Positions 24,453 to 30,821 of a stretch of 30,821 nucleotides of DNA are shown here, piece after piece (the stretch's first letter is position 1; each line of letters opens with the position of its first letter). The notes under the pieces are model-generated. The model made no database searches, was not told the DNA's origin, and saw nothing but the letters and a program-made list of their open reading frames with translations. This DNA comes from a virus. Lineage: Duplodnaviria > Heunggongvirae > Uroviricota > Caudoviricetes. Both the position numbers and the translations under genes were made by a program. The stretch is taken from the IMG/VR virus record IMGVR_UViG_2713896904_000004; one strand, written 5' to 3'.

Positions 24453-24602
24453 TGCATAATCCTCTTGGATGGTTCGCGTACGATACGTGGCATCCTTCTC
24501 AGAATCGAATCGCACTCCATTCCGGTTTTGCCATAAACGATCTTTTATGCTTCGCTGGATGTAGTTGATAGTTGTTGAAACTCAATGAACAGGAGTTCAC
24601 AA

Positions 24603-24938
24603 ATGAATAGTTATGAATGGGAATGGCTTTTGAACAAAGATGACACCCTATACTTTTTCCCCGTAGGCCATTCTGTAGAAGGTAATTACAAAATTCACTT
24701 TGAGTTGAGCGGTAGTTGTAACCTTAGAGTCTCAGATGCTGAATGGCATGGTAAACCTGTACTGCTGTTCGAATACTTCGATGAAGATGATGACCGCCCT
24801 GCAATAATCGAAATATTAGAAACAACCACTACAACTGTGGAGGCGATGATCGCACATCTGAATAGTATCGATAGTATTTACCATGAACCGATTTACAAAG
24901 CTGTTTACGAGTGGGCTGTAAAGTTTTTCTATCGATGA
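24603..24938 (+). CDS. Hypothetical small acidic protein (111 aa), cargo gene 1 of the Rz-cos island
   Basis: ATG 24603 is preceded by AGGAG at 24591..24595 with 7-nt spacing (track start 24585). AT-rich, opposite strand to phage late genes. No family recognised. Confidence 0.6.
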   Translation: MNSYEWEWLLNKDDTLYFFPVGHSVEGNYKIHFELSGSCNLRVSDAEWHGKPVLLFEYFDEDDDRPAIIEILETTTTTVEAMIAHLNSIDSIYHEPIYKAVYEWAVKFFYR

Positions 24939-24981
24939 TACTTCGTTATCTTTCTGGTATTCACAATACCTTTACATATTA

Positions 24982-25608
24982 ATGACATGCCAGCACAATA
25001 CTGTCACTTACAACCGTTCGGATTACCTAGAGAAAAGTATGATTCAGGATTTACTGATCGAAGCAATTAGTCACGATAGGATGCATAAAAAGTTAAATGA
25101 ACTGAATGGCTACTTCTACAATCGCAAACATGAAACACAAATACGTGATGAGTTAGTTGTTATACTCAATCAAATCAGCACACTAACTGCTTTAAGTGAG
25201 CATCCAAAACTCGGTATCGGCGCTGTTGACATATCACTTTATAACCAGTCGATATTAACGTCTGAACATAATGGCAATGTTGCAACCATCGAGATAAAAC
25301 ACCATTACCCAAAGGATTTACTTTATCGGCAAGTTCAAGAAGACATCATTTCCGATATTTCAAGAGTAATAGTTTCACCAACTACACATTTTATCCATAT
25401 AATCCAGCAAAGAACCAGGATTAATACTCCTTCTTTTGGCCAAGTGAAATTCCTTGAACGTGATGCAAGTGATATCAGCACTTATGTGCAATACCTTGAA
25501 GAGCTAAGTTCATTTCCCAGTAATTTTCATAAAAAAAGTATATGTATTGAGGTACTTGGTGAAATTATGTCGACATATACCTTTAACGTATATTCATTTG
25601 ACAACTGA
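24982..25608 (+). CDS. Hypothetical protein (208 aa), cargo gene 2 of the Rz-cos island; possible PD-(D/E)xK-like nuclease motif
   Basis: AT-rich ORF. GIGAVDISLY followed 21 residues later by TIEIKHH gives a hydrophobic-D ... E-x-K pattern. Alternative start at ATG 25039 (MIQDLL). Confidence 0.55.
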   Translation: MTCQHNTVTYNRSDYLEKSMIQDLLIEAISHDRMHKKLNELNGYFYNRKHETQIRDELVVILNQISTLTALSEHPKLGIGAVDISLYNQSILTSEHNGNVATIEIKHHYPKDLLYRQVQEDIISDISRVIVSPTTHFIHIIQQRTRINTPSFGQVKFLERDASDISTYVQYLEELSSFPSNFHKKSICIEVLGEIMSTYTFNVYSFDN

Positions 25609-25629
25609 TCAATTTGACAATTTTATTGC

Positions 25630-25887
25630 TTAATGGTTAGTTCTCTCTGCATCTATTTTACGAATATCAGCTTTATCCCGATTGCAGTTAGCCAGTGCAG
25701 ACAACAGACTCACATTCAGCTCCAGGCTGGCACCATACGTCAGAGGATTTGGTATGAACGGTACAGGTGTTTCAGAAGTCAGACTAGTCGGTAATGTTGT
25801 AGCCGGAGTGCTCACGTAAACTGTCCGCGTACTTCCGCAACCGCTCAGCAGCGGCAGCAGGCACAAGGCGTGCAGCACAATCATCAT
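25630..25887 (-). CDS. Rz1-like outer-membrane spanin lipoprotein (o-spanin), overlapping the 3' end of Rz in another frame
   Basis: Signal peptide with lipobox MMIVLHALCLLPLLSGC, then a Pro/Thr-rich mature region; starts inside the Rz-like gene and runs past its stop. Confidence 0.6.
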   Translation of the reverse strand: MMIVLHALCLLPLLSGCGSTRTVYVSTPATTLPTSLTSETPVPFIPNPLTYGASLELNVSLLSALANCNRDKADIRKIDAERTNH

Positions 25888-26164
25888 CCGCAACAGCCAC
25901 TTTGATATCTTTCTGGGTTCTCTGTGACTCCAGTGCGATCTGCTGTTTTGCATGCTGGTTAACCTCTATAACTGTATTGACGATTTGCAGTGATTGCAGG
26001 ACGTTACGGGTAATGGCTGTTGCAGATTCAGCATTTTGTACAGCCTCATCAGCACGTTTCTTTTCGTGCTGATATTTGCTGTAGTAGTGGTTGGCAGACC
26101 AGATGAAAGAACCGATGACAGTAAAGATGAATGCAGAGATAGCCAGCTTATAGCTCAACTTCAT
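25784..26164 (-). CDS. Rz-like inner-membrane spanin (i-spanin), 126 aa
   Basis: N-terminal transmembrane helix LAISAFIFTVIGSFIW followed by a charged coiled-coil-like region; immediately downstream of the endolysin with overlap. Confidence 0.7.
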   Translation of the reverse strand: MKLSYKLAISAFIFTVIGSFIWSANHYYSKYQHEKKRADEAVQNAESATAITRNVLQSLQIVNTVIEVNQHAKQQIALESQRTQKDIKVAVADDDCAARLVPAAAAERLRKYADSLREHSGYNITD

Positions 26165-26624
26165 TTACCACCCCACCAGCCTCTTTAAACCGGGAAATCA
26201 GGTCACCGATTTTATGTTCATACTGACCGTAACCTGCACCAGGTAACGACGCCCAGATATTGCTGCAACGATCGATAGCCTGACGAATATCGCCGCGATC
26301 AATCATCGGTAAAGCGCCACGCTCTTTAATCTGCTGTAATGCAACAGCATCCTGGCTTTTAGGAGAGAAGTCTGTCAGCCCTAACTGCTTGCGGTAAGCA
26401 TCCCACCAGCGCGAAAGAAGTTGATAACGGCCTGCAGCTGTTGATTTGAGTTTCGGGTTTAGCGTGACAAGCTTGCGAGGGTGATCGGAGTAATCAGTGA
26501 AGAGTTCTCCACCGACAATAACATCATAACCGTGGTTACGTGTCGGTTGTCGCCCGTTATCCGTTCCTTCTGACCATGCCACCATATCGAGGAAAGCTTT
26601 ACGCTGGGAATTTAGTACCTGCAT
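26148..26624 (-). CDS. Endolysin, lambda R-like lytic transglycosylase, 158 aa
   Basis: Near-identical by recall to lambda R (NQRKAFLDM-AWSEGTDNGRQ-TRNHGYDVIVGGELFTDYSDHPRKLVTLNPKLKST-AGRYQLLSRWWDAYRKQLGL-DFSPKSQDAVALQQIKERGALPMIDRGDIRQAIDRCSNIWASLPGAGYGQ) and the same length. Confidence 0.88.
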   Translation of the reverse strand: MQVLNSQRKAFLDMVAWSEGTDNGRQPTRNHGYDVIVGGELFTDYSDHPRKLVTLNPKLKSTAAGRYQLLSRWWDAYRKQLGLTDFSPKSQDAVALQQIKERGALPMIDRGDIRQAIDRCSNIWASLPGAGYGQYEHKIGDLISRFKEAGGVVNEVEL

Positions 26625-26627
26625 AAA

Positions 26628-26954
26628 TTACTCCTTAGAGCCACCAAACTTATTACCGATTACTCTCATTGCAGCCCCACGAATAGCATCGACCCCGATC
26701 AGCCCAACGCCGCCACCAATGGCAACAGAAAGAGATTTAGGCCATCCGACATACTCAAGAGCGGATGCAAAAGTCAGCGTCAGAGCACCACAGAGCAAAA
26801 TCTCGAGCGTTTTTCGTTTCCAGCCACCACCACCGCCAAAATAGGCAATGCGCAAGCCAGCCATAACGATCGACATAATCACTGCGCCCAGCGGTGTGTC
26901 TCCACGCCACCAGCTCTGGACCAACTCCAGCCAGGTATTTGGGTTATGAGGCAT
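26628..26954 (-). CDS. Holin (class I-like, three predicted membrane helices), 108 aa
   Basis: Immediately upstream of the endolysin with a 3-nt gap; three hydrophobic helices and a charged C-terminus. Not lambda S by sequence. Confidence 0.7.
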   Translation of the reverse strand: MPHNPNTWLELVQSWWRGDTPLGAVIMSIVMAGLRIAYFGGGGGWKRKTLEILLCGALTLTFASALEYVGWPKSLSVAIGGGVGLIGVDAIRGAAMRVIGNKFGGSKE

Positions 26955-27106
26955 TTGTAGTTATCTCTCACCTCGCTGATACAGCAGGTGCAAATTGAGG
27001 AAACATCATGTACCGCAAATCAGATGCGGAAACGTCAAAGAAGCCGAGTCAATGGATAACTGCGGGATAGGCTAGGACCAAGGAATCCCCAGACCCAGAA
27101 ACGACA

Positions 27107-27128
27107 AAACCCGCTCGATGGCGGGTTT
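27107..27128 (-). terminator. Hairpin AAACCCGC-CATCGA-GCGGGTTT followed by TGTCGTTTC on the minus strand; candidate tR'-like terminator upstream of the holin
   Basis: 8-bp stem, 6-nt loop, U-rich tail only in the minus-strand orientation; lies in the 290-bp gap between the cargo operon start and the holin start. Confidence 0.4.
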
Positions 27129-27192
27129 AAGCTGTGTGGCGAAGTGAGCACACTTAACAGATTACGATATTTTTTGCGTACGCGTTAGTGTT

Positions 27193-27233
27193 TTGATAGA
27201 ATTTTCAGCCACATAAAAATTCATTCTTATAAT
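27193..27233 (+). promoter_or_regulatory. Candidate sigma70 promoter elements for the cargo operon (TTGATA at 27193..27198 with AAAAAT 17 bp downstream; TATAAT at 27228..27233)
   Basis: Hexamers seen directly in the AT-rich region just upstream of ATG 27246; spacing for the TATAAT hexamer relative to TTGATA is non-canonical, so the exact promoter is uncertain. Confidence 0.3.
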
Positions 27234-27245
27234 TCGGGATATATA

Positions 27246-28421
27246 ATGGATATAACTTGTTTAGAATGTGGCAATGTTCTTGACGACCCAACTGTAGCTT
27301 GCGATAAATGCGGCGCCACGCCTCATGTTGTAGTGCTGGGCAAACAATCGTACTTTCCTATTGGTGCTGTAACAGCAAATCTTGAAAAAAATGATTCAAG
27401 AGCATTTGATTATCGATTAGGTGAAGTTTGGGATCTAAAAAATGAAGTCACATCTGAATTCATAACCAGAATTGAGAAAAAATTTAGCCGAAAAAACAAA
27501 TTTCATAACTTCCTAGACTCAGATCACAACCCTTCATCCATTCCTACGATCCTAAAAAAATACATTAATAAAAATAATGAATTCATTGATTTATCTAGAG
27601 CTATAATAGAGAAGCTTAAACATAATGCTAATAACGAATCGAGAGTTGCCCAACTTCAGGGGGGGAGCGTTGTTTTCATCCACTATAAGTCTACCGAACC
27701 AGAGGATTTGGGAAAACTTCTAATCGTAATGGTTGATAAACAAAGCGCCTATGACTTTGATTCGGATAAGTTGACCCCAACAAGATTAAATCCAATTAAT
27801 ACCGATGCCTTACGGCAGGCTGCGATGTTCGATTTAACTTTATTCGAAGCCAGTTATCCAGAAAACAAGGGTGACTCATATGTACATTTCTTGCAAGGTA
27901 AATCTAAAAGCGATTTTTTCAAAGACTCATTAGGTTGCCGACATGATTCGGACAATAAAAGAAGCATTCAGCAATTATTCAGTGCTATAGATATTTTTGC
28001 TAGTAAAAACTCACTCGGTCGTGTACTGCGTGATACTATTGACAATGAAGTTAAATCCTTACTGGAAAAAAAATCAAAAGATAAATACGGAAATAAGTCC
28101 GTTAAGATAGAGGATATTTCAAAAATAATTGACTCATGCCTGACTGATTCACACAAATGTAAGGGAACGTTTGTCGATTTTGTTAATCTTAATGGTTTCC
28201 AGATTGATCCTCAATTTGAACCAACTCCTAAAGCAGCTGAAAGCGCGCTTACAATTGAAGTGGCAGATAACGACAATAATTTTAAGTTGAAAATAATGCG
28301 TGGAGCTATTGGAGACGAAAAGTCAAATAAGCCTGTAATTCTCACTGACAACAAATGCGAAATTGTGATAAAATTGAGTCAGGCAAATTATGATGAACTC
28401 AAAAGATATAGAGACAGCTAA
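27246..28421 (+). CDS. Cargo protein A: N-terminal Zn-ribbon (CxxC-x10-CxxC) protein with possible NA37/YejK-like nucleoid-associated domain, 391 aa
   Basis: Clean ATG start; AT-rich; Cys5, Cys8, Cys19, Cys22; blocks GGSVVFIHY, LLIVMVD, NPINTDALRQAAMFDLT and YVHFLQGKSKSDFFKDSLG resemble, from memory, conserved blocks of NdpA/YejK. No hydrophobic helices, no Walker A. Confidence 0.75.
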   Translation: MDITCLECGNVLDDPTVACDKCGATPHVVVLGKQSYFPIGAVTANLEKNDSRAFDYRLGEVWDLKNEVTSEFITRIEKKFSRKNKFHNFLDSDHNPSSIPTILKKYINKNNEFIDLSRAIIEKLKHNANNESRVAQLQGGSVVFIHYKSTEPEDLGKLLIVMVDKQSAYDFDSDKLTPTRLNPINTDALRQAAMFDLTLFEASYPENKGDSYVHFLQGKSKSDFFKDSLGCRHDSDNKRSIQQLFSAIDIFASKNSLGRVLRDTIDNEVKSLLEKKSKDKYGNKSVKIEDISKIIDSCLTDSHKCKGTFVDFVNLNGFQIDPQFEPTPKAAESALTIEVADNDNNFKLKIMRGAIGDEKSNKPVILTDNKCEIVIKLSQANYDELKRYRDS

Positions 28422-28423
28422 TA

Positions 28424-29638
28424 ATGACAATTGCTGATGACTTATCAAGATTAGCGCAGATTATTAACGGAGCCTCAAGCAGAGTTGAGGGCTACTACAC
28501 TGTCATAAGTCTTGAAGAAAGCATTGTTATTGTAAATAGTTCTGAAATAATTAGACTGTTACAATCTATAGGTTATAAAAAGGCAACAAACTGCATCGAA
28601 AATAATGAAATTTGGCTAGATCGCCAAGCTTCATCTTGGGATGACGCTATAATTTATGAGAATGTTGAGTCTTTTTGGTCTAGAGTAAACACCCAAAACG
28701 CTCTTCCGAAAAATTATATCATCGGAACGCCGTTAATACTCCCTACTTCTAAGAATGAAAGCATCGAAAAAATCCATATTTTCTTTATGTGGAAAGATAT
28801 CCTTTCATTAATTGCTGATCATCATAACAGTGACTGCTCTGTCTTATTTTTCACCAATGAAGACAAAAGTTATACAGTCGAACTCACGCATTTTTTACAA
28901 TATAGCGAGATTAATCGCTTATCGAACTCGTCTCTTAAATATGAAATTATAAAGGAGCTTCTCGACACAATAAAAATCAATGATTTACACAAAAGCGAGC
29001 GCAAGCTCGTTATACGTTCAGCCATAAACGAAGTATTTAAAGCAAATGGTACATTCAATTTCTTTGACTTGCTTAACTCTACTGAACTCGTCAGAAAAAA
29101 ATATGATGAACTATATGAGATTTACACAAAGAGGTTTTCTGTAAATAAAATTCTTAACGAACTCGATGAGAAAAATCTTGAGTTCACGAGTAAAATTAAC
29201 GAATTCATATCATCTAATCAGACAAAAGCATTGACTATTCCCGGTGCATTAATAGCAGCTGGTGGCTTAGTGAAGGCTAATGAAACAACCGAAGCAATAT
29301 TGATTATCGCAGGACTTTGGATGATAAAAAAAGTCAATTACATTTCTATTGAGATATTCAATGAAACATTCGACAACTTACGTTCTCGAGTGGAGTCCGC
29401 TTTCGATAAGTATTTAAAGTTTGAAGAAAATAAAGAAATCAAAGATAATGCAGATAGTATTAAGAGTAGCATTACAGGTTTGATTGATAAAGCTAAAAAA
29501 AGGATGAGAACTGTTAAATATCTCGCATCAGCCATGTTTTATGGAGGCCTTATTTACGTTGGATATAAACAGTTCCCAGTCTTTTTTGAAAAATCGGCAG
29601 TAAATCTATTTTATTTTTTATGCCATACTATAAGCTAA
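28424..29638 (+). CDS. Cargo protein B: 404-aa protein with C-terminal hydrophobic segments (putative membrane effector), translationally coupled to A
   Basis: ATG 2 nt after the stop of A; hydrophobic stretches at residues 269-301 (ALTIPGALIAAGGLV / AILIIAGLWMI) and 366-388 (YLASAMFYGGLIYVGYKQFPVFF); no catalytic motif recognised; 3' end overlaps the Q gene on the other strand. Confidence 0.75.
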   Translation: MTIADDLSRLAQIINGASSRVEGYYTVISLEESIVIVNSSEIIRLLQSIGYKKATNCIENNEIWLDRQASSWDDAIIYENVESFWSRVNTQNALPKNYIIGTPLILPTSKNESIEKIHIFFMWKDILSLIADHHNSDCSVLFFTNEDKSYTVELTHFLQYSEINRLSNSSLKYEIIKELLDTIKINDLHKSERKLVIRSAINEVFKANGTFNFFDLLNSTELVRKKYDELYEIYTKRFSVNKILNELDEKNLEFTSKINEFISSNQTKALTIPGALIAAGGLVKANETTEAILIIAGLWMIKKVNYISIEIFNETFDNLRSRVESAFDKYLKFEENKEIKDNADSIKSSITGLIDKAKKRMRTVKYLASAMFYGGLIYVGYKQFPVFFEKSAVNLFYFLCHTIS

Positions 29639-29974
29639 CATTGCTAAACAGCCGTCAACAAACCCCATGGCAGTCTGCAATTCCTTCCTAATTGTGCCAT
29701 CTGAACATCTTCTCTTCTTGGCAATAGTGCGTAATGAGATACCAATAACAAAGTGAGCTATGAGCAGCTCATATTCCTCTGGTTTATACTTTCGCAACCG
29801 AGCCACACAACCGTCTATCATGATGCCTTCATCATCATCACACTGGAGACGTGACTTTTTACCGTGTGGTAAAAGTCCCTTGAAACCAGCCGCTATCGGC
29901 TGCCAGTCCACACCACTATTTTCTGCTGCAGCCCATGCTCCCCAGCGGTCCAATACTTCATACATATCACGCAT
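29618..29974 (-). CDS. Late-gene antiterminator Q (QuuD-like family), 118 aa from ATG 29974
   Basis: MRDMYEVLDRWGAWAA...WQPIAAGFKGLL...CDDDEGIMIDGC...CSDG matches, by recall, DLP12 QuuD (MRDIQMVLERWGAWAA...SIAAGFKGLI...). Located upstream of the lysis cassette. The track ORF has 5 extra N-terminal codons. Confidence 0.7.
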   Translation of the reverse strand: MRDMYEVLDRWGAWAAAENSGVDWQPIAAGFKGLLPHGKKSRLQCDDDEGIMIDGCVARLRKYKPEEYELLIAHFVIGISLRTIAKKRRCSDGTIRKELQTAMGFVDGCLAMLAYSMA

Positions 29975-29991
29975 CAACTTTCTCCACAAAA

Positions 29992-30821
29992 TCAGGCCAG
30001 CACGCCAATTGCCAGCGCACGATCGATAAAACGAAATATCAGCTCCAGCTGGGAGCCATACTTCTCTTCAAATGCCACGGTATCCGCATGCAGCTCGTCG
30101 TGATGCTTTCTGCACAAAGGCAACACAAAAAGGTCATGCGCTTTTGTTCCCATTCCACCCTGACCGTAACCTATCAGGTGATGGGGATCATCAGCGGGCC
30201 TTCCACAACATGCACACGGCTGTGTCTTAACCCAGCGCGTGTACTTTTCATTAACCCAGCGGCGACGTTTGGGGCGTAACATAAAAGACTCCGGCGACTC
30301 CGGATCCACTTTCAGCGCCAGCACCTTTTTCGCCTTATCCAGGATGATGCTGGTGGCAGGAACCGAAGGCACAAGGTCACTTTCCCGGGTGACAGACGGC
30401 ACAACAGGCTTCGGTAATCTCAGTGCCTTACGGGCTGCACTTTCCGGTAAGGCATCCGCCAGATCATTACGAATCAGCCACCAGCACAGTTCCGGCATTG
30501 TCACAACGTGACTGTCATCAAAACCGAGATCCCGACGCACAACAGACAACACCCAGCGGGCACAGTTATCCGTTGCCATTGTTTCCAGCCGTTCCGTGAA
30601 CTGATCGCGCAGCTGGTTATCGCAGTGCCAGCACAGACGGATTGCTCCCGGAGCGTGCCGCATTGTGGTCATGTTCTCGCTGTGCCAGTCGGAATGAGGC
30701 CACTGACAGCCCTTTTCACGAAGTAACCAGCTTTCAAGACATTCCACGCCACCAGCACGACGGATCACTGCCTCATAGCGGAACACGGCCCGAACGGCAG
30801 GATCATCCGCCAGCGGTTGTG
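29992..30821 (-). CDS. DUF968 (YdfU-like) phage protein with C-terminal Cys/His-rich HNH-like motif; 5' end probably outside the window
   Basis: C-terminus CACCGRPADDPHHLIGYGQGGMGTKAHDLFVLPLCRKHHDELH. The track start at 30786 is a GTG with open frame upstream to the window edge. Lies just upstream of Q, as ydfU does beside quuQ in Qin. Confidence 0.5.
   Translation of the reverse strand, partial: QPLADDPAVRAVFRYEAVIRRAGGVECLESWLLREKGCQWPHSDWHSENMTTMRHAPGAIRLCWHCDNQLRDQFTERLETMATDNCARWVLSVVRRDLGFDDSHVVTMPELCWWLIRNDLADALPESAARKALRLPKPVVPSVTRESDLVPSVPATSIILDKAKKVLALKVDPESPESFMLRPKRRRWVNEKYTRWVKTQPCACCGRPADDPHHLIGYGQGGMGTKAHDLFVLPLCRKHHDELHADTVAFEEKYGSQLELIFRFIDRALAIGVLA

Follow-up and report, generated by a model that had tools for sequence, protein, structure and literature searches.

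The DNA considered here, referred to as the window at its full length of 30,821 nucleotides, is the Caudoviricetes record IMGVR_UViG_2713896904_000004 of IMG/VR and seems to include the late-control region of an SfII-like lambdoid prophage. On the minus strand the genes of this region follow the order DUF968, Q, holin, endolysin and Rz, with the antiterminator gene Q (29618..29974) co-oriented with the late genes. Between Q and the holin gene lie a plus-strand cassette of low guanine-plus-cytosine (GC) content (27246..29638), in which we recognised the defence system DS-1, and a conserved minus-strand unit of ~95 bp (27100..27193). On the basis of its conservation, position and size, we read this unit as the pR'/qut/tR' (late promoter, Q site and terminator) of this Q family. 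We judge it likely that the unit survives intact upstream of the holin gene and that the 21-bp tail-to-tail overlap of Q with the distal DS-1 gene is a by-product of the cassette junction.

The Q gene is contained in a minus-strand open reading frame (ORF) listed at 29618..29989, which encodes 123 residues from a TTG or 118 residues from the ATG at 29974, the latter being most plausibly the start. Its product matches PF06530 (Phage_antitermQ) along the full length of the model (positions 1-115 of 118; E = 2.6e-47, 160 bits, cut-off 26), while the match to the solved phage 21 Q chains in the PDB, its sole solved relative and a distant one, is weak but specific (E = 0.002). By family match and position, the protein would thus be an antiterminator of the Q21 family, a short member of what we call type A, with a predicted antitermination activity. 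The conserved part of the protein ends at about ...GFVDGCLAM, and a comparison of tails revealed that the terminal LAYSMA is specific to the DS-1 cassette class; DNA homology of this gene to other Q genes stops near 29647.

As for the cargo, gene A (27246..28421, plus strand, 391 residues) matches the NCBIfam model NF053868 for DS1_1, a nucleoid-associated YejK/NA37-like anti-phage protein (E = 2.5e-135; 451 bits, equivalog cut-off 330), and Pfam NA37 (E = 1.4e-23). Gene B (28424..29638, plus strand, 404 residues), named 'anti-phage protein' by PGAP, matches NF053869 (DS1_2_antiphage; E = 2.5e-112; 375 bits, equivalog cut-off 315) over residues 46-378 only, and a Pfam search gave no domain for it. 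The two genes are adjacent and co-oriented, 2 nucleotides apart. PADLOC (2023) recognised neither protein, and it was NCBIfam that then gave DS-1; with both proteins above curated cut-offs, the cargo is a DS-1 defence system, and protection by this allele is predicted. DS-1 stems from DefensePredictor, among whose experimentally validated systems there is a YejK-domain one (PMC13092281). The window copy is an ordinary member of it, found apparently in its usual prophage context, as judged from 104 complete E. coli genomes. The GC content drops to 0.30-0.39 from ~27160 to ~29650, compared with ~0.5 on both flanks, which bears out the view of the sequence-only reading that the cargo is an insertion. 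A promoter region for the DS-1 operon is predicted at 27193..27234 (plus strand), with a first candidate from a consensus scan (TTGATA-16-AAAAAT, 27193..27220) and a second one read by eye (TTCAGC-18-TATAAT, 27204..27233); the predicted region stands back to back with the candidate late-promoter unit. Since the terminator scan predicted no plus-strand terminator after gene B, DS-1 transcripts would probably enter Q in the antisense direction. We also observed that ATTCTATCA (27194..27202, minus strand), directly upstream of the conserved unit, corresponds to the last three codons (I-L-S) of the Q gene of the cargo-free locus L045. With the Q-tail-like bases that precede it, this stretch looks like what remains of an earlier Q 3' end, retained at the right edge of the DS-1 cassette.

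The 3' ends of Q and gene B converge in a 21-bp overlap (29618..29638), to which each gene contributes its last six sense codons and its stop, antiparallel and with matching codon registers, as the ORF table and the sequence agree. The same arrangement recurs at ~98% identity over 3.5 kb in 104 of 5426 complete E. coli genomes, and also in 32 of the loci in our sample of 80 viral contigs (IMG/VR) that encode this Q at 88-100% identity; a sequencing-frameshift artefact is therefore unlikely. The sequence-only reading had gone further and taken the overlap to imply that the cargo had displaced the late promoter, an implication we could not sustain. Among DS-1 variants the overlap is either 21 or 30 bp long, and with most other cassettes it is absent. 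In the DS-1 variants of loci L008, L009, L067 and L070, a mutated B stop adds KHC (...CHTISKHC instead of ...CHTIS) and the overlap reaches 30 bp; the Q tails of these four loci differ as well, reading LTYSMA or LAQCMA. On the side of gene B, the last 26 residues, overlap included, fall outside the conserved family core, since the DS1_2 model ends at residue 378 of 404. On the side of Q, the tail following a conserved G(F/V)(I/V)(D/E)G-x-(L/I) motif differs with every cassette, the protein ending 18-60 nucleotides later, which places the left junction of the cassette inside the last Q codons. It would follow that Q reads six codons into cassette DNA and that gene B reads to the first stop met, giving the 21 bp. 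The overlap is no greater than expected by chance if each frame runs to the first stop past the recombination junction and, because both protein tails are unconstrained, it is best seen as a junction by-product that holds no signal in itself.

The conserved unit became apparent when we aligned the sequences that precede the first late gene of the window, SfII, SfIV, Stx2a_1447 and mEp460. A block of ~95 nucleotides is conserved in all five, with a different cargo upstream in each; the genes downstream differ as well, being a holin gene in some and a small ORF plus a methylase gene in others. SfII and SfIV match the window in their holin and in the kind of Q that they encode, with other antisense genes between the two. 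In the window, the first late gene downstream of the unit is that of holin S (26628..26954, minus strand; PF05106, E = 5.7e-25). Of the 80 IMG/VR loci, 75 carry the unit downstream of Q. Four of the remaining five end at Q or at most ~900 nucleotides from it, and one has an insertion of the IS3 family of insertion sequences (IS). The latter (L051, 8388..10020) is the only full-length locus that lacks the unit; as read, an IS3-family transposase lies beside the slot, a position suggesting that an IS caused the late control unit to be lost or rearranged. The unit is present too in DLP12, PA-2, 434B, Klebsiella phages, SfII, SfIV and Stx phages. The distances from the Q stop to the unit in the IMG/VR loci fall into 16 discrete classes, from 3 nucleotides to ~2.96 kb, and across these classes no other element conserved between Q and the late genes was found in the alignments and the IMG/VR loci.

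A comparison with cargo-free relatives, which had been proposed along with the displacement hypothesis, proved informative. In loci L045-47 (the 3-nucleotide class) the Q stop is followed by nine bases and then by the conserved core, with all later genes co-directional with Q, and in the cargo-free Stx2a phage Stx2_EH2201 the order is Q, unit, small ORF, methylase, tRNAs and stx2AB. In these phages the unit starts ~10-16 nucleotides from the Q stop. In turn, the curated GenBank record of phage 21 places a -35 hexamer, a Q-binding element (QBE), a -10 hexamer, the start site, a sigma-dependent pause element (SDPE) and a terminator within 85 nucleotides, beginning 7 nucleotides after the Q stop; the canonical late-regulatory cassette of Q is described elsewhere (bioRxiv 10.1101/651190; PMC6606751). 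Because the cargo-free relatives and the phage 21 record agree, the unit has both the place and the size of a canonical pR'/qut/tR'. The unit of the window, instead of following Q immediately, is 2.4 kb away from the stop of that gene, and the position after Q, where lambdoid phages usually hold pR' and qut, is indeed occupied by antisense cargo, as the sequence-only reading had remarked. The proposed displacement of the late promoter by the cargo is thus right inasmuch as the promoter would no longer stand beside Q; it would not be lost, the unit being intact downstream of the cargo. Among the options raised at that time, the conserved unit favours the one that put pR' and qut in the gap at 26955..27245, together with a terminator-like hairpin. 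A search of Rfam returned no family for the unit, either at gathering thresholds or at E up to 1, and full-text literature searches with the unit sequence and with the K-12 coordinates of the predicted start gave nothing relevant.

The main reason for reading the block as qut is that part of it tracks the type of the regulator across a variable insert. When Q proteins and blocks were compared across all loci, we found four Q types, 45-56% identical between types, each paired with its own palindromic element at the same position in the block. Type A Q (window, L045 and SfII) is paired with AAC-GCGTACGC, type B (SfIV and Stx2_EH2201) with GCGGTCCGC, type C (QuuD of DLP12, Lambda_4C10 and PhiR40_1) with TTTAC-n4-GTAAA and type D (phiP27) with GGAATTCC. 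A run of A follows each of the four elements, T standing in its place in SfIV, and the next 36 nucleotides (GTTAAGAGTGG...CTTAAAC) are 94-100% identical in every Q type. The pairing persists across different cargoes and in cargo-free phages, as exemplified by SfIV and EH2201, which share the element with 2.5 kb of cargo in the former and none in the latter. As a side observation, the type A Q of SfII (L001, 3759..4070) has 103 residues and is devoid of ~15 residues (the AENSGVDWQPIA region) that all other type A Qs, cargo-free ones included, possess.

These data bear on two other explanations. According to the first, the late promoter and the Q site would reside in the 3'-terminal part of either Q or gene B, the late transcript would run through 2.4 kb in antisense to the cargo, and the unit would be only the distal terminator and leader. 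It is true that the conservation of the (V/I)DG codons in Q keeps in place a -35-like TTGA(C/T)G, which in L045 (8317..8346) has a TATCAT partner at 18 nucleotides, and in the window (29627..29658, minus strand) a TATAGT (29627..29632) at 20 nucleotides from TTGACG (29653..29658), inside the overlap. Yet, the -10 partner, by our reading, is not conserved across cargo classes, the 20-nucleotide spacer exceeds the usual range, and the promoter scan called nothing there. Moreover, the DNA past the Q core is wholly different between classes with the same Q, and the bases that adjoin the Q stop show no relationship from one cargo class to another, which excludes a Q-specific site at that position. 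This explanation also leaves unexplained why the upstream half of a distant unit should track the Q type, and it is at odds with the cargo-free relatives and phage 21, which have the whole unit directly after Q; we regard it as very improbable.

The second explanation sees in the unit a general insulator, that is, a terminator combined with a host-factor site such as one for CRP, which would block early read-through and control the cargo, with the late promoter located elsewhere. The PA-2 record does annotate a CRP site within the unit, the downstream half is identical whatever the Q type, and DLP12 has a separate RpoE promoter upstream of the unit. However, in cargo-free phages the unit directly follows Q, where there is nothing to regulate, its upstream half varies with the type of Q and not with that of the cargo, and across the classes compared nothing else is conserved between Q and the late genes. 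We therefore grant the insulator as small a chance as a promoter in the 3' end of Q or gene B.

Returning to the unit as pR'/qut/tR', its anatomy can be outlined as follows, all coordinates being on the minus strand. The palindrome GCGTACGC (27176..27183), the candidate Q-binding element for type A Q, lies inside the invariant CTAACGCGTACGCAAAAA (27171..27188) and is overlapped by CTAACG (27183..27188), the best -35 candidate. Alignments, a position-weight scan and the phage 21 annotation point to TAATCT (27159..27164) as either a -10 candidate or a sigma-dependent pause element. In all variants this hexamer, which precedes GTTAAG, follows the pattern (T/c)AnnnT, its second (A) and sixth (T) bases being fixed while the inner ones vary, so that TAATCT of the window is replaced elsewhere by TATCGT, TACTGT, TATGCT, TAAGCT or CAGTAT. 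It is followed by a near-invariant leader, GTTAAG(T/A)GTG..CACACAGCTTAAAC (27125..27158; 94-100% identical across all Q types), which may form a hairpin (TTAAG/CTTAA and GTGGT/GCCAC) that is 95% paired, covariation amounting to one compensatory change from A-U to G-C among related sequences. The unit closes with a predicted intrinsic terminator, the candidate tR' (27098..27128), supported by the terminator scan and by RNA folding and consisting of AAACCCGC-CATCGA-GCGGGTTT followed by TGTCGTTTCT. The terminator-like hairpin noticed in the sequence-only reading (27128..27107), with 8 pairs, 5 of them GC, and a T-rich tail, is the one called here as an intrinsic terminator. Most relatives whose sequence departs from this one at the terminator nevertheless have a predicted GC hairpin and U run, the most divergent variants being ambiguous.

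A position-weight sigma-70 scan over 44 variants, for which the annotated promoter of phage 21 served as positive control and was recovered at 11.0 bits, gave CTAACG-18-TAnnnT as the most consistent pairing, weak in type A (2.8-4.6 bits). The pairing of DLP12 is stronger (TTTACG-16-TATGCT, 7.8 bits), and in PhiR40_1 TTTACA-16-TATGCT can be read by eye. Two registers are possible. In register 1, the hexamer would act as the -10, with a start near 27152, the palindrome at about -31 to -24 and a terminated RNA of ~50 nucleotides. In register 2, the hexamer plus the following G would be a pause element like TAAGCTG of phage 21, to which one variant is identical, and the start would fall near 27165. 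In this second register the palindrome centre lies ~15 nucleotides upstream of the pause element, as against 17 nucleotides from the downstream Q subsite to the pause in phage 21, and the compensatory change in the leader hairpin would mildly favour it. Two further candidates were tried and rejected: with the exact geometry of phage 21 (a -35-like hexamer 36 nucleotides before TAnnnTG) the -10 falls on the palindrome and the spacers are 14 or 20 nucleotides, and in the GTTA..GTTA direct repeats of the leader, considered as a Q site, the second copy is not conserved.

Several points weigh against the assignment of the unit as the late promoter and Q site. The window variant scores 2.8 bits, compared with 11.0 for the phage 21 promoter in the same scan, and a simple consensus scan of 26600..30100 did not flag the unit as a promoter; it gave 12 promoter-like sites, with 9.8 expected, and thus no significant excess. 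Each register has a weakness of its own, as register 1 shows no clear -10-like pause element downstream of the predicted start and register 2 has a poor -10. The candidate Q sites are palindromic, in contrast to the direct repeats of phage 21, and the co-variation comprises four Q types only, so that linkage by descent is possible. The literature yielded no report of a 5' end, a pause or Q binding for the unit. Finally, an RpoE-dependent +1 of the DLP12 lysis operon, which we placed indirectly with the help of the published primer Pdlp12Fw (PMC7918800), falls ~350 nucleotides upstream of the unit, just outside nmpC (L086 ~5375; NC_000913.3 ~576,874), which implies that, in DLP12 at least, other promoters would also feed the lysis genes. 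Such RpoE transcripts would have to pass the terminator of the unit.

The stretch between Q and the unit turned out to be a recurrent insertion slot. We found ~20 different cassettes there, mostly antisense and mostly defence-like. They were tabulated as 17 cargo/spacing classes (IMG/VR loci, named phages and DLP12), with further cassettes in PhiR40_1, a Klebsiella phage, phiP27 and L068, and the tabulated ones have a GC content of 0.31-0.46. Apart from DS-1, the slot houses caspase with a ThsB-type TIR protein, RelA/SpoT with another NA37 protein, Dam methylase with a PD-Lambda-5_A relative, Dcm with HEPN and GmrSD_N, PDC-S42, PDC-M53A (in SfII) and the porins nmpC and lc; in several cassettes no known domain was found. 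Nearly all of them run against Q, with their starts adjoining the unit and their 3' ends packed against the Q stop. The rare exceptions with the same orientation as Q are a GIY-YIG nuclease gene in phiP27 (L091, 2235..3464) and a Dcm methylase gene in the 2950-nucleotide class (L073, 8418..9470). Overlaps with the Q stop also occur in other cassettes, of 8 and 11 bp and, in L068, of 4 bp, while the remaining tabulated classes leave gaps of a few tens of nucleotides or less, DLP12 excepted. Among side observations, the slot of L049 (8387..10464) holds an NA37/YejK-like protein and a RelA/SpoT-domain protein (Pfam-supported), the former a possible relative of DS-1 gene A. In turn, L068 (8348..10768) has a cassette of DS-1 length, in which the tail of one ORF resembles the gene A tail; there may thus be a family of YejK-based defence systems that share the slot. 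The cassette of the 1576-nucleotide class is flanked on both sides by TTATGA (L038, 8348..8365; right junction in L054), with a Q tail of the cargo-free allele, and these flanks could represent either a target duplication or microhomology at the insertion point.

Taken together with the unit, these observations would fit the following scheme. The DS-1 cassette would occupy the slot between Q and the cognate late unit of Q, where the Q-type-specific palindrome (GCGTACGC) with its A-tract, overlapping a weak -35, would serve as the likely Q-binding element. RNA polymerase would start at the unit and release a terminated RNA of ~50-65 nucleotides unless Q loads, in which case it would read through into the holin, endolysin and Rz genes. 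Late transcription would hence start downstream of the cargo and run away from it. The sequence-only reading had entertained a late transcript that must cross 2.4 kb of antisense cargo, and had predicted interference between cargo expression and the late genes. As the late start would lie beyond the cargo and be directed away from it, such interference is not expected, the late and cargo promoters being predicted back to back. What would converge on DS-1 is the transcription of Q itself from the early-right operon, and in the opposite direction the cassette transcripts would run antisense into Q.

Such convergence raises the possibility that the overlap is functional and couples DS-1 to Q, with Q silenced by antisense transcription in the lysogen and DS-1 turned off upon induction. 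Compatible with it are the lack of a predicted plus-strand terminator after gene B, with cassette transcripts expected to enter Q, the antisense promoter paQ inside Q of phage 21 and lambda, the lowering of an antisense defence gene by Q-driven transcription in phi80 (PMC11364771), and the close packing of almost every cassette, in antisense orientation, up to the Q stop. The overlap as such, however, is an ill-suited carrier of this function, as its length is not conserved (0, 4, 8, 11, 21 or 30 bp), it lies in the unconstrained tails of both proteins, most cassettes do without it, and convergence needs no overlap. We consider a functional overlap unlikely, though clearly less so than a late promoter beside the Q stop or an insulator. 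With equal reserve, we put forward a joint reading as a tentative idea. In this reading, the short Qs of the QuuD/SfII clade would recognise a single Q-type-specific palindrome instead of direct repeats, and the slot would systematically part the regulator gene from its target. Its antisense occupants would be expressed in the lysogen, sending antisense RNA into Q, and would be switched off on induction by early-right transcription through Q.

Comparison with known systems places the locus in familiar surroundings. Like the window, phage 21 has a Q of PF06530, a compact unit (85 versus ~95 nucleotides) that follows the Q stop by a few nucleotides, as in cargo-free relatives of the window, and a specific element upstream of a -10-type hexamer, the latter a candidate in the window. 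The TAnnnTG motif resembles the SDPE of phage 21 (TAAGCTG), and in both a terminator gives an RNA of ~50 nucleotides, which is a prediction for the window. The differences are that the Q of the window is ~26% identical to that of phage 21 and 44 residues shorter, that a single palindrome stands in place of two 8-bp direct repeats, that the -35 is weak and that 2.4 kb of cargo separate Q from the unit. Closer parallels are provided by the quuD-nmpC-essD region of DLP12 (qsr') and by lc of PA-2, in which a short Q is followed by an antisense non-phage gene for a porin, the same unit and lysis genes. There the cargo is a porin and not a defence system, and DLP12 differs further in its type C Q (46% identical), in its palindrome TTTACGTACGTAAA and in a gap of ~190 nucleotides after quuD with no overlap; its nmpC is interrupted (quuD, nmpC::IS5, essD). 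The same layout is found in the 434 hybrid and Lambda_4C10, both deposited as complete phage genomes, which suggests that it is compatible with phage growth. Recombinants of lambda carrying qsr'/nmpC go back to the 1970s-80s, and control of the essD promoter by the Q of DLP12 was reportedly described by Rueggeberg et al. in 2013. Thus, neither the architecture nor DS-1 is new, the latter being found in its usual context. The event that the sequence-only reading treated as a one-off belongs to a general slot, long known from nmpC in DLP12 and lc in PA-2. Other hotspots for morons and defence genes (stx between Q and S, P2/P4, and Tai of phi80, PMC11364771) are alike in having a fixed slot with interchangeable, low-GC, independently transcribed genes. 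However, stx and phi80 Tai lie downstream of pR', inside the late transcript, whereas the slot described here lies upstream of pR' and its occupants are almost always antisense. In the literature searched, we did not find a statement of a slot specifically between Q and the qut unit, nor of Q-type-specific palindromes in the unit.

Regarding the flanking genes, all on the minus strand, the DUF968/HNH-like gene (YdfU family; 29992..30786; PF06147, E = 2.4e-80) lies immediately upstream of Q and is the usual partner of this Q type, since the DUF968-Q order is the same in SfII, SfIV, Stx phages and a Klebsiella phage. Downstream of the holin gene, the endolysin (26148..26624) and Rz/Rz1 (25630..26164) genes were recognised by homology to the lysis genes of SfII, SfIV and SfV. 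We noted a second low-GC island (24520..25650; GC 0.32-0.41) with two plus-strand ORFs (24585..24938, 117 residues, and 24982..25608, 208 residues) oriented against the HNH gene and Rz/Rz1 on either side. Neither ORF gave a match in Pfam, PADLOC or NCBIfam. In SfV and SfIV the distance between Rz1 and the HNH gene is ~27-290 nucleotides, and the island looks like another antisense cargo slot.

In terms of the biology of these phages, our reading of the overlap is deflationary, as it gives no reason to suppose that the late operon and the cargo are in any special conflict. For annotation, it means that the conserved unit, rather than the Q stop, is where to look for the late promoter of this widespread Q clade. 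Members of the clade include Stx1, Stx2a and Stx2e phages, in which toxin production is driven from pR'. New defence cassettes can dependably be sought between Q and the unit, and the four Q-type/palindrome pairs offer a ready-made specificity-swap set for Q-DNA recognition in a clade that is without a solved complex. If the joint reading were true, the slot would tie the expression of immune cargo to the lysis-lysogeny state while leaving the late operon unexposed.

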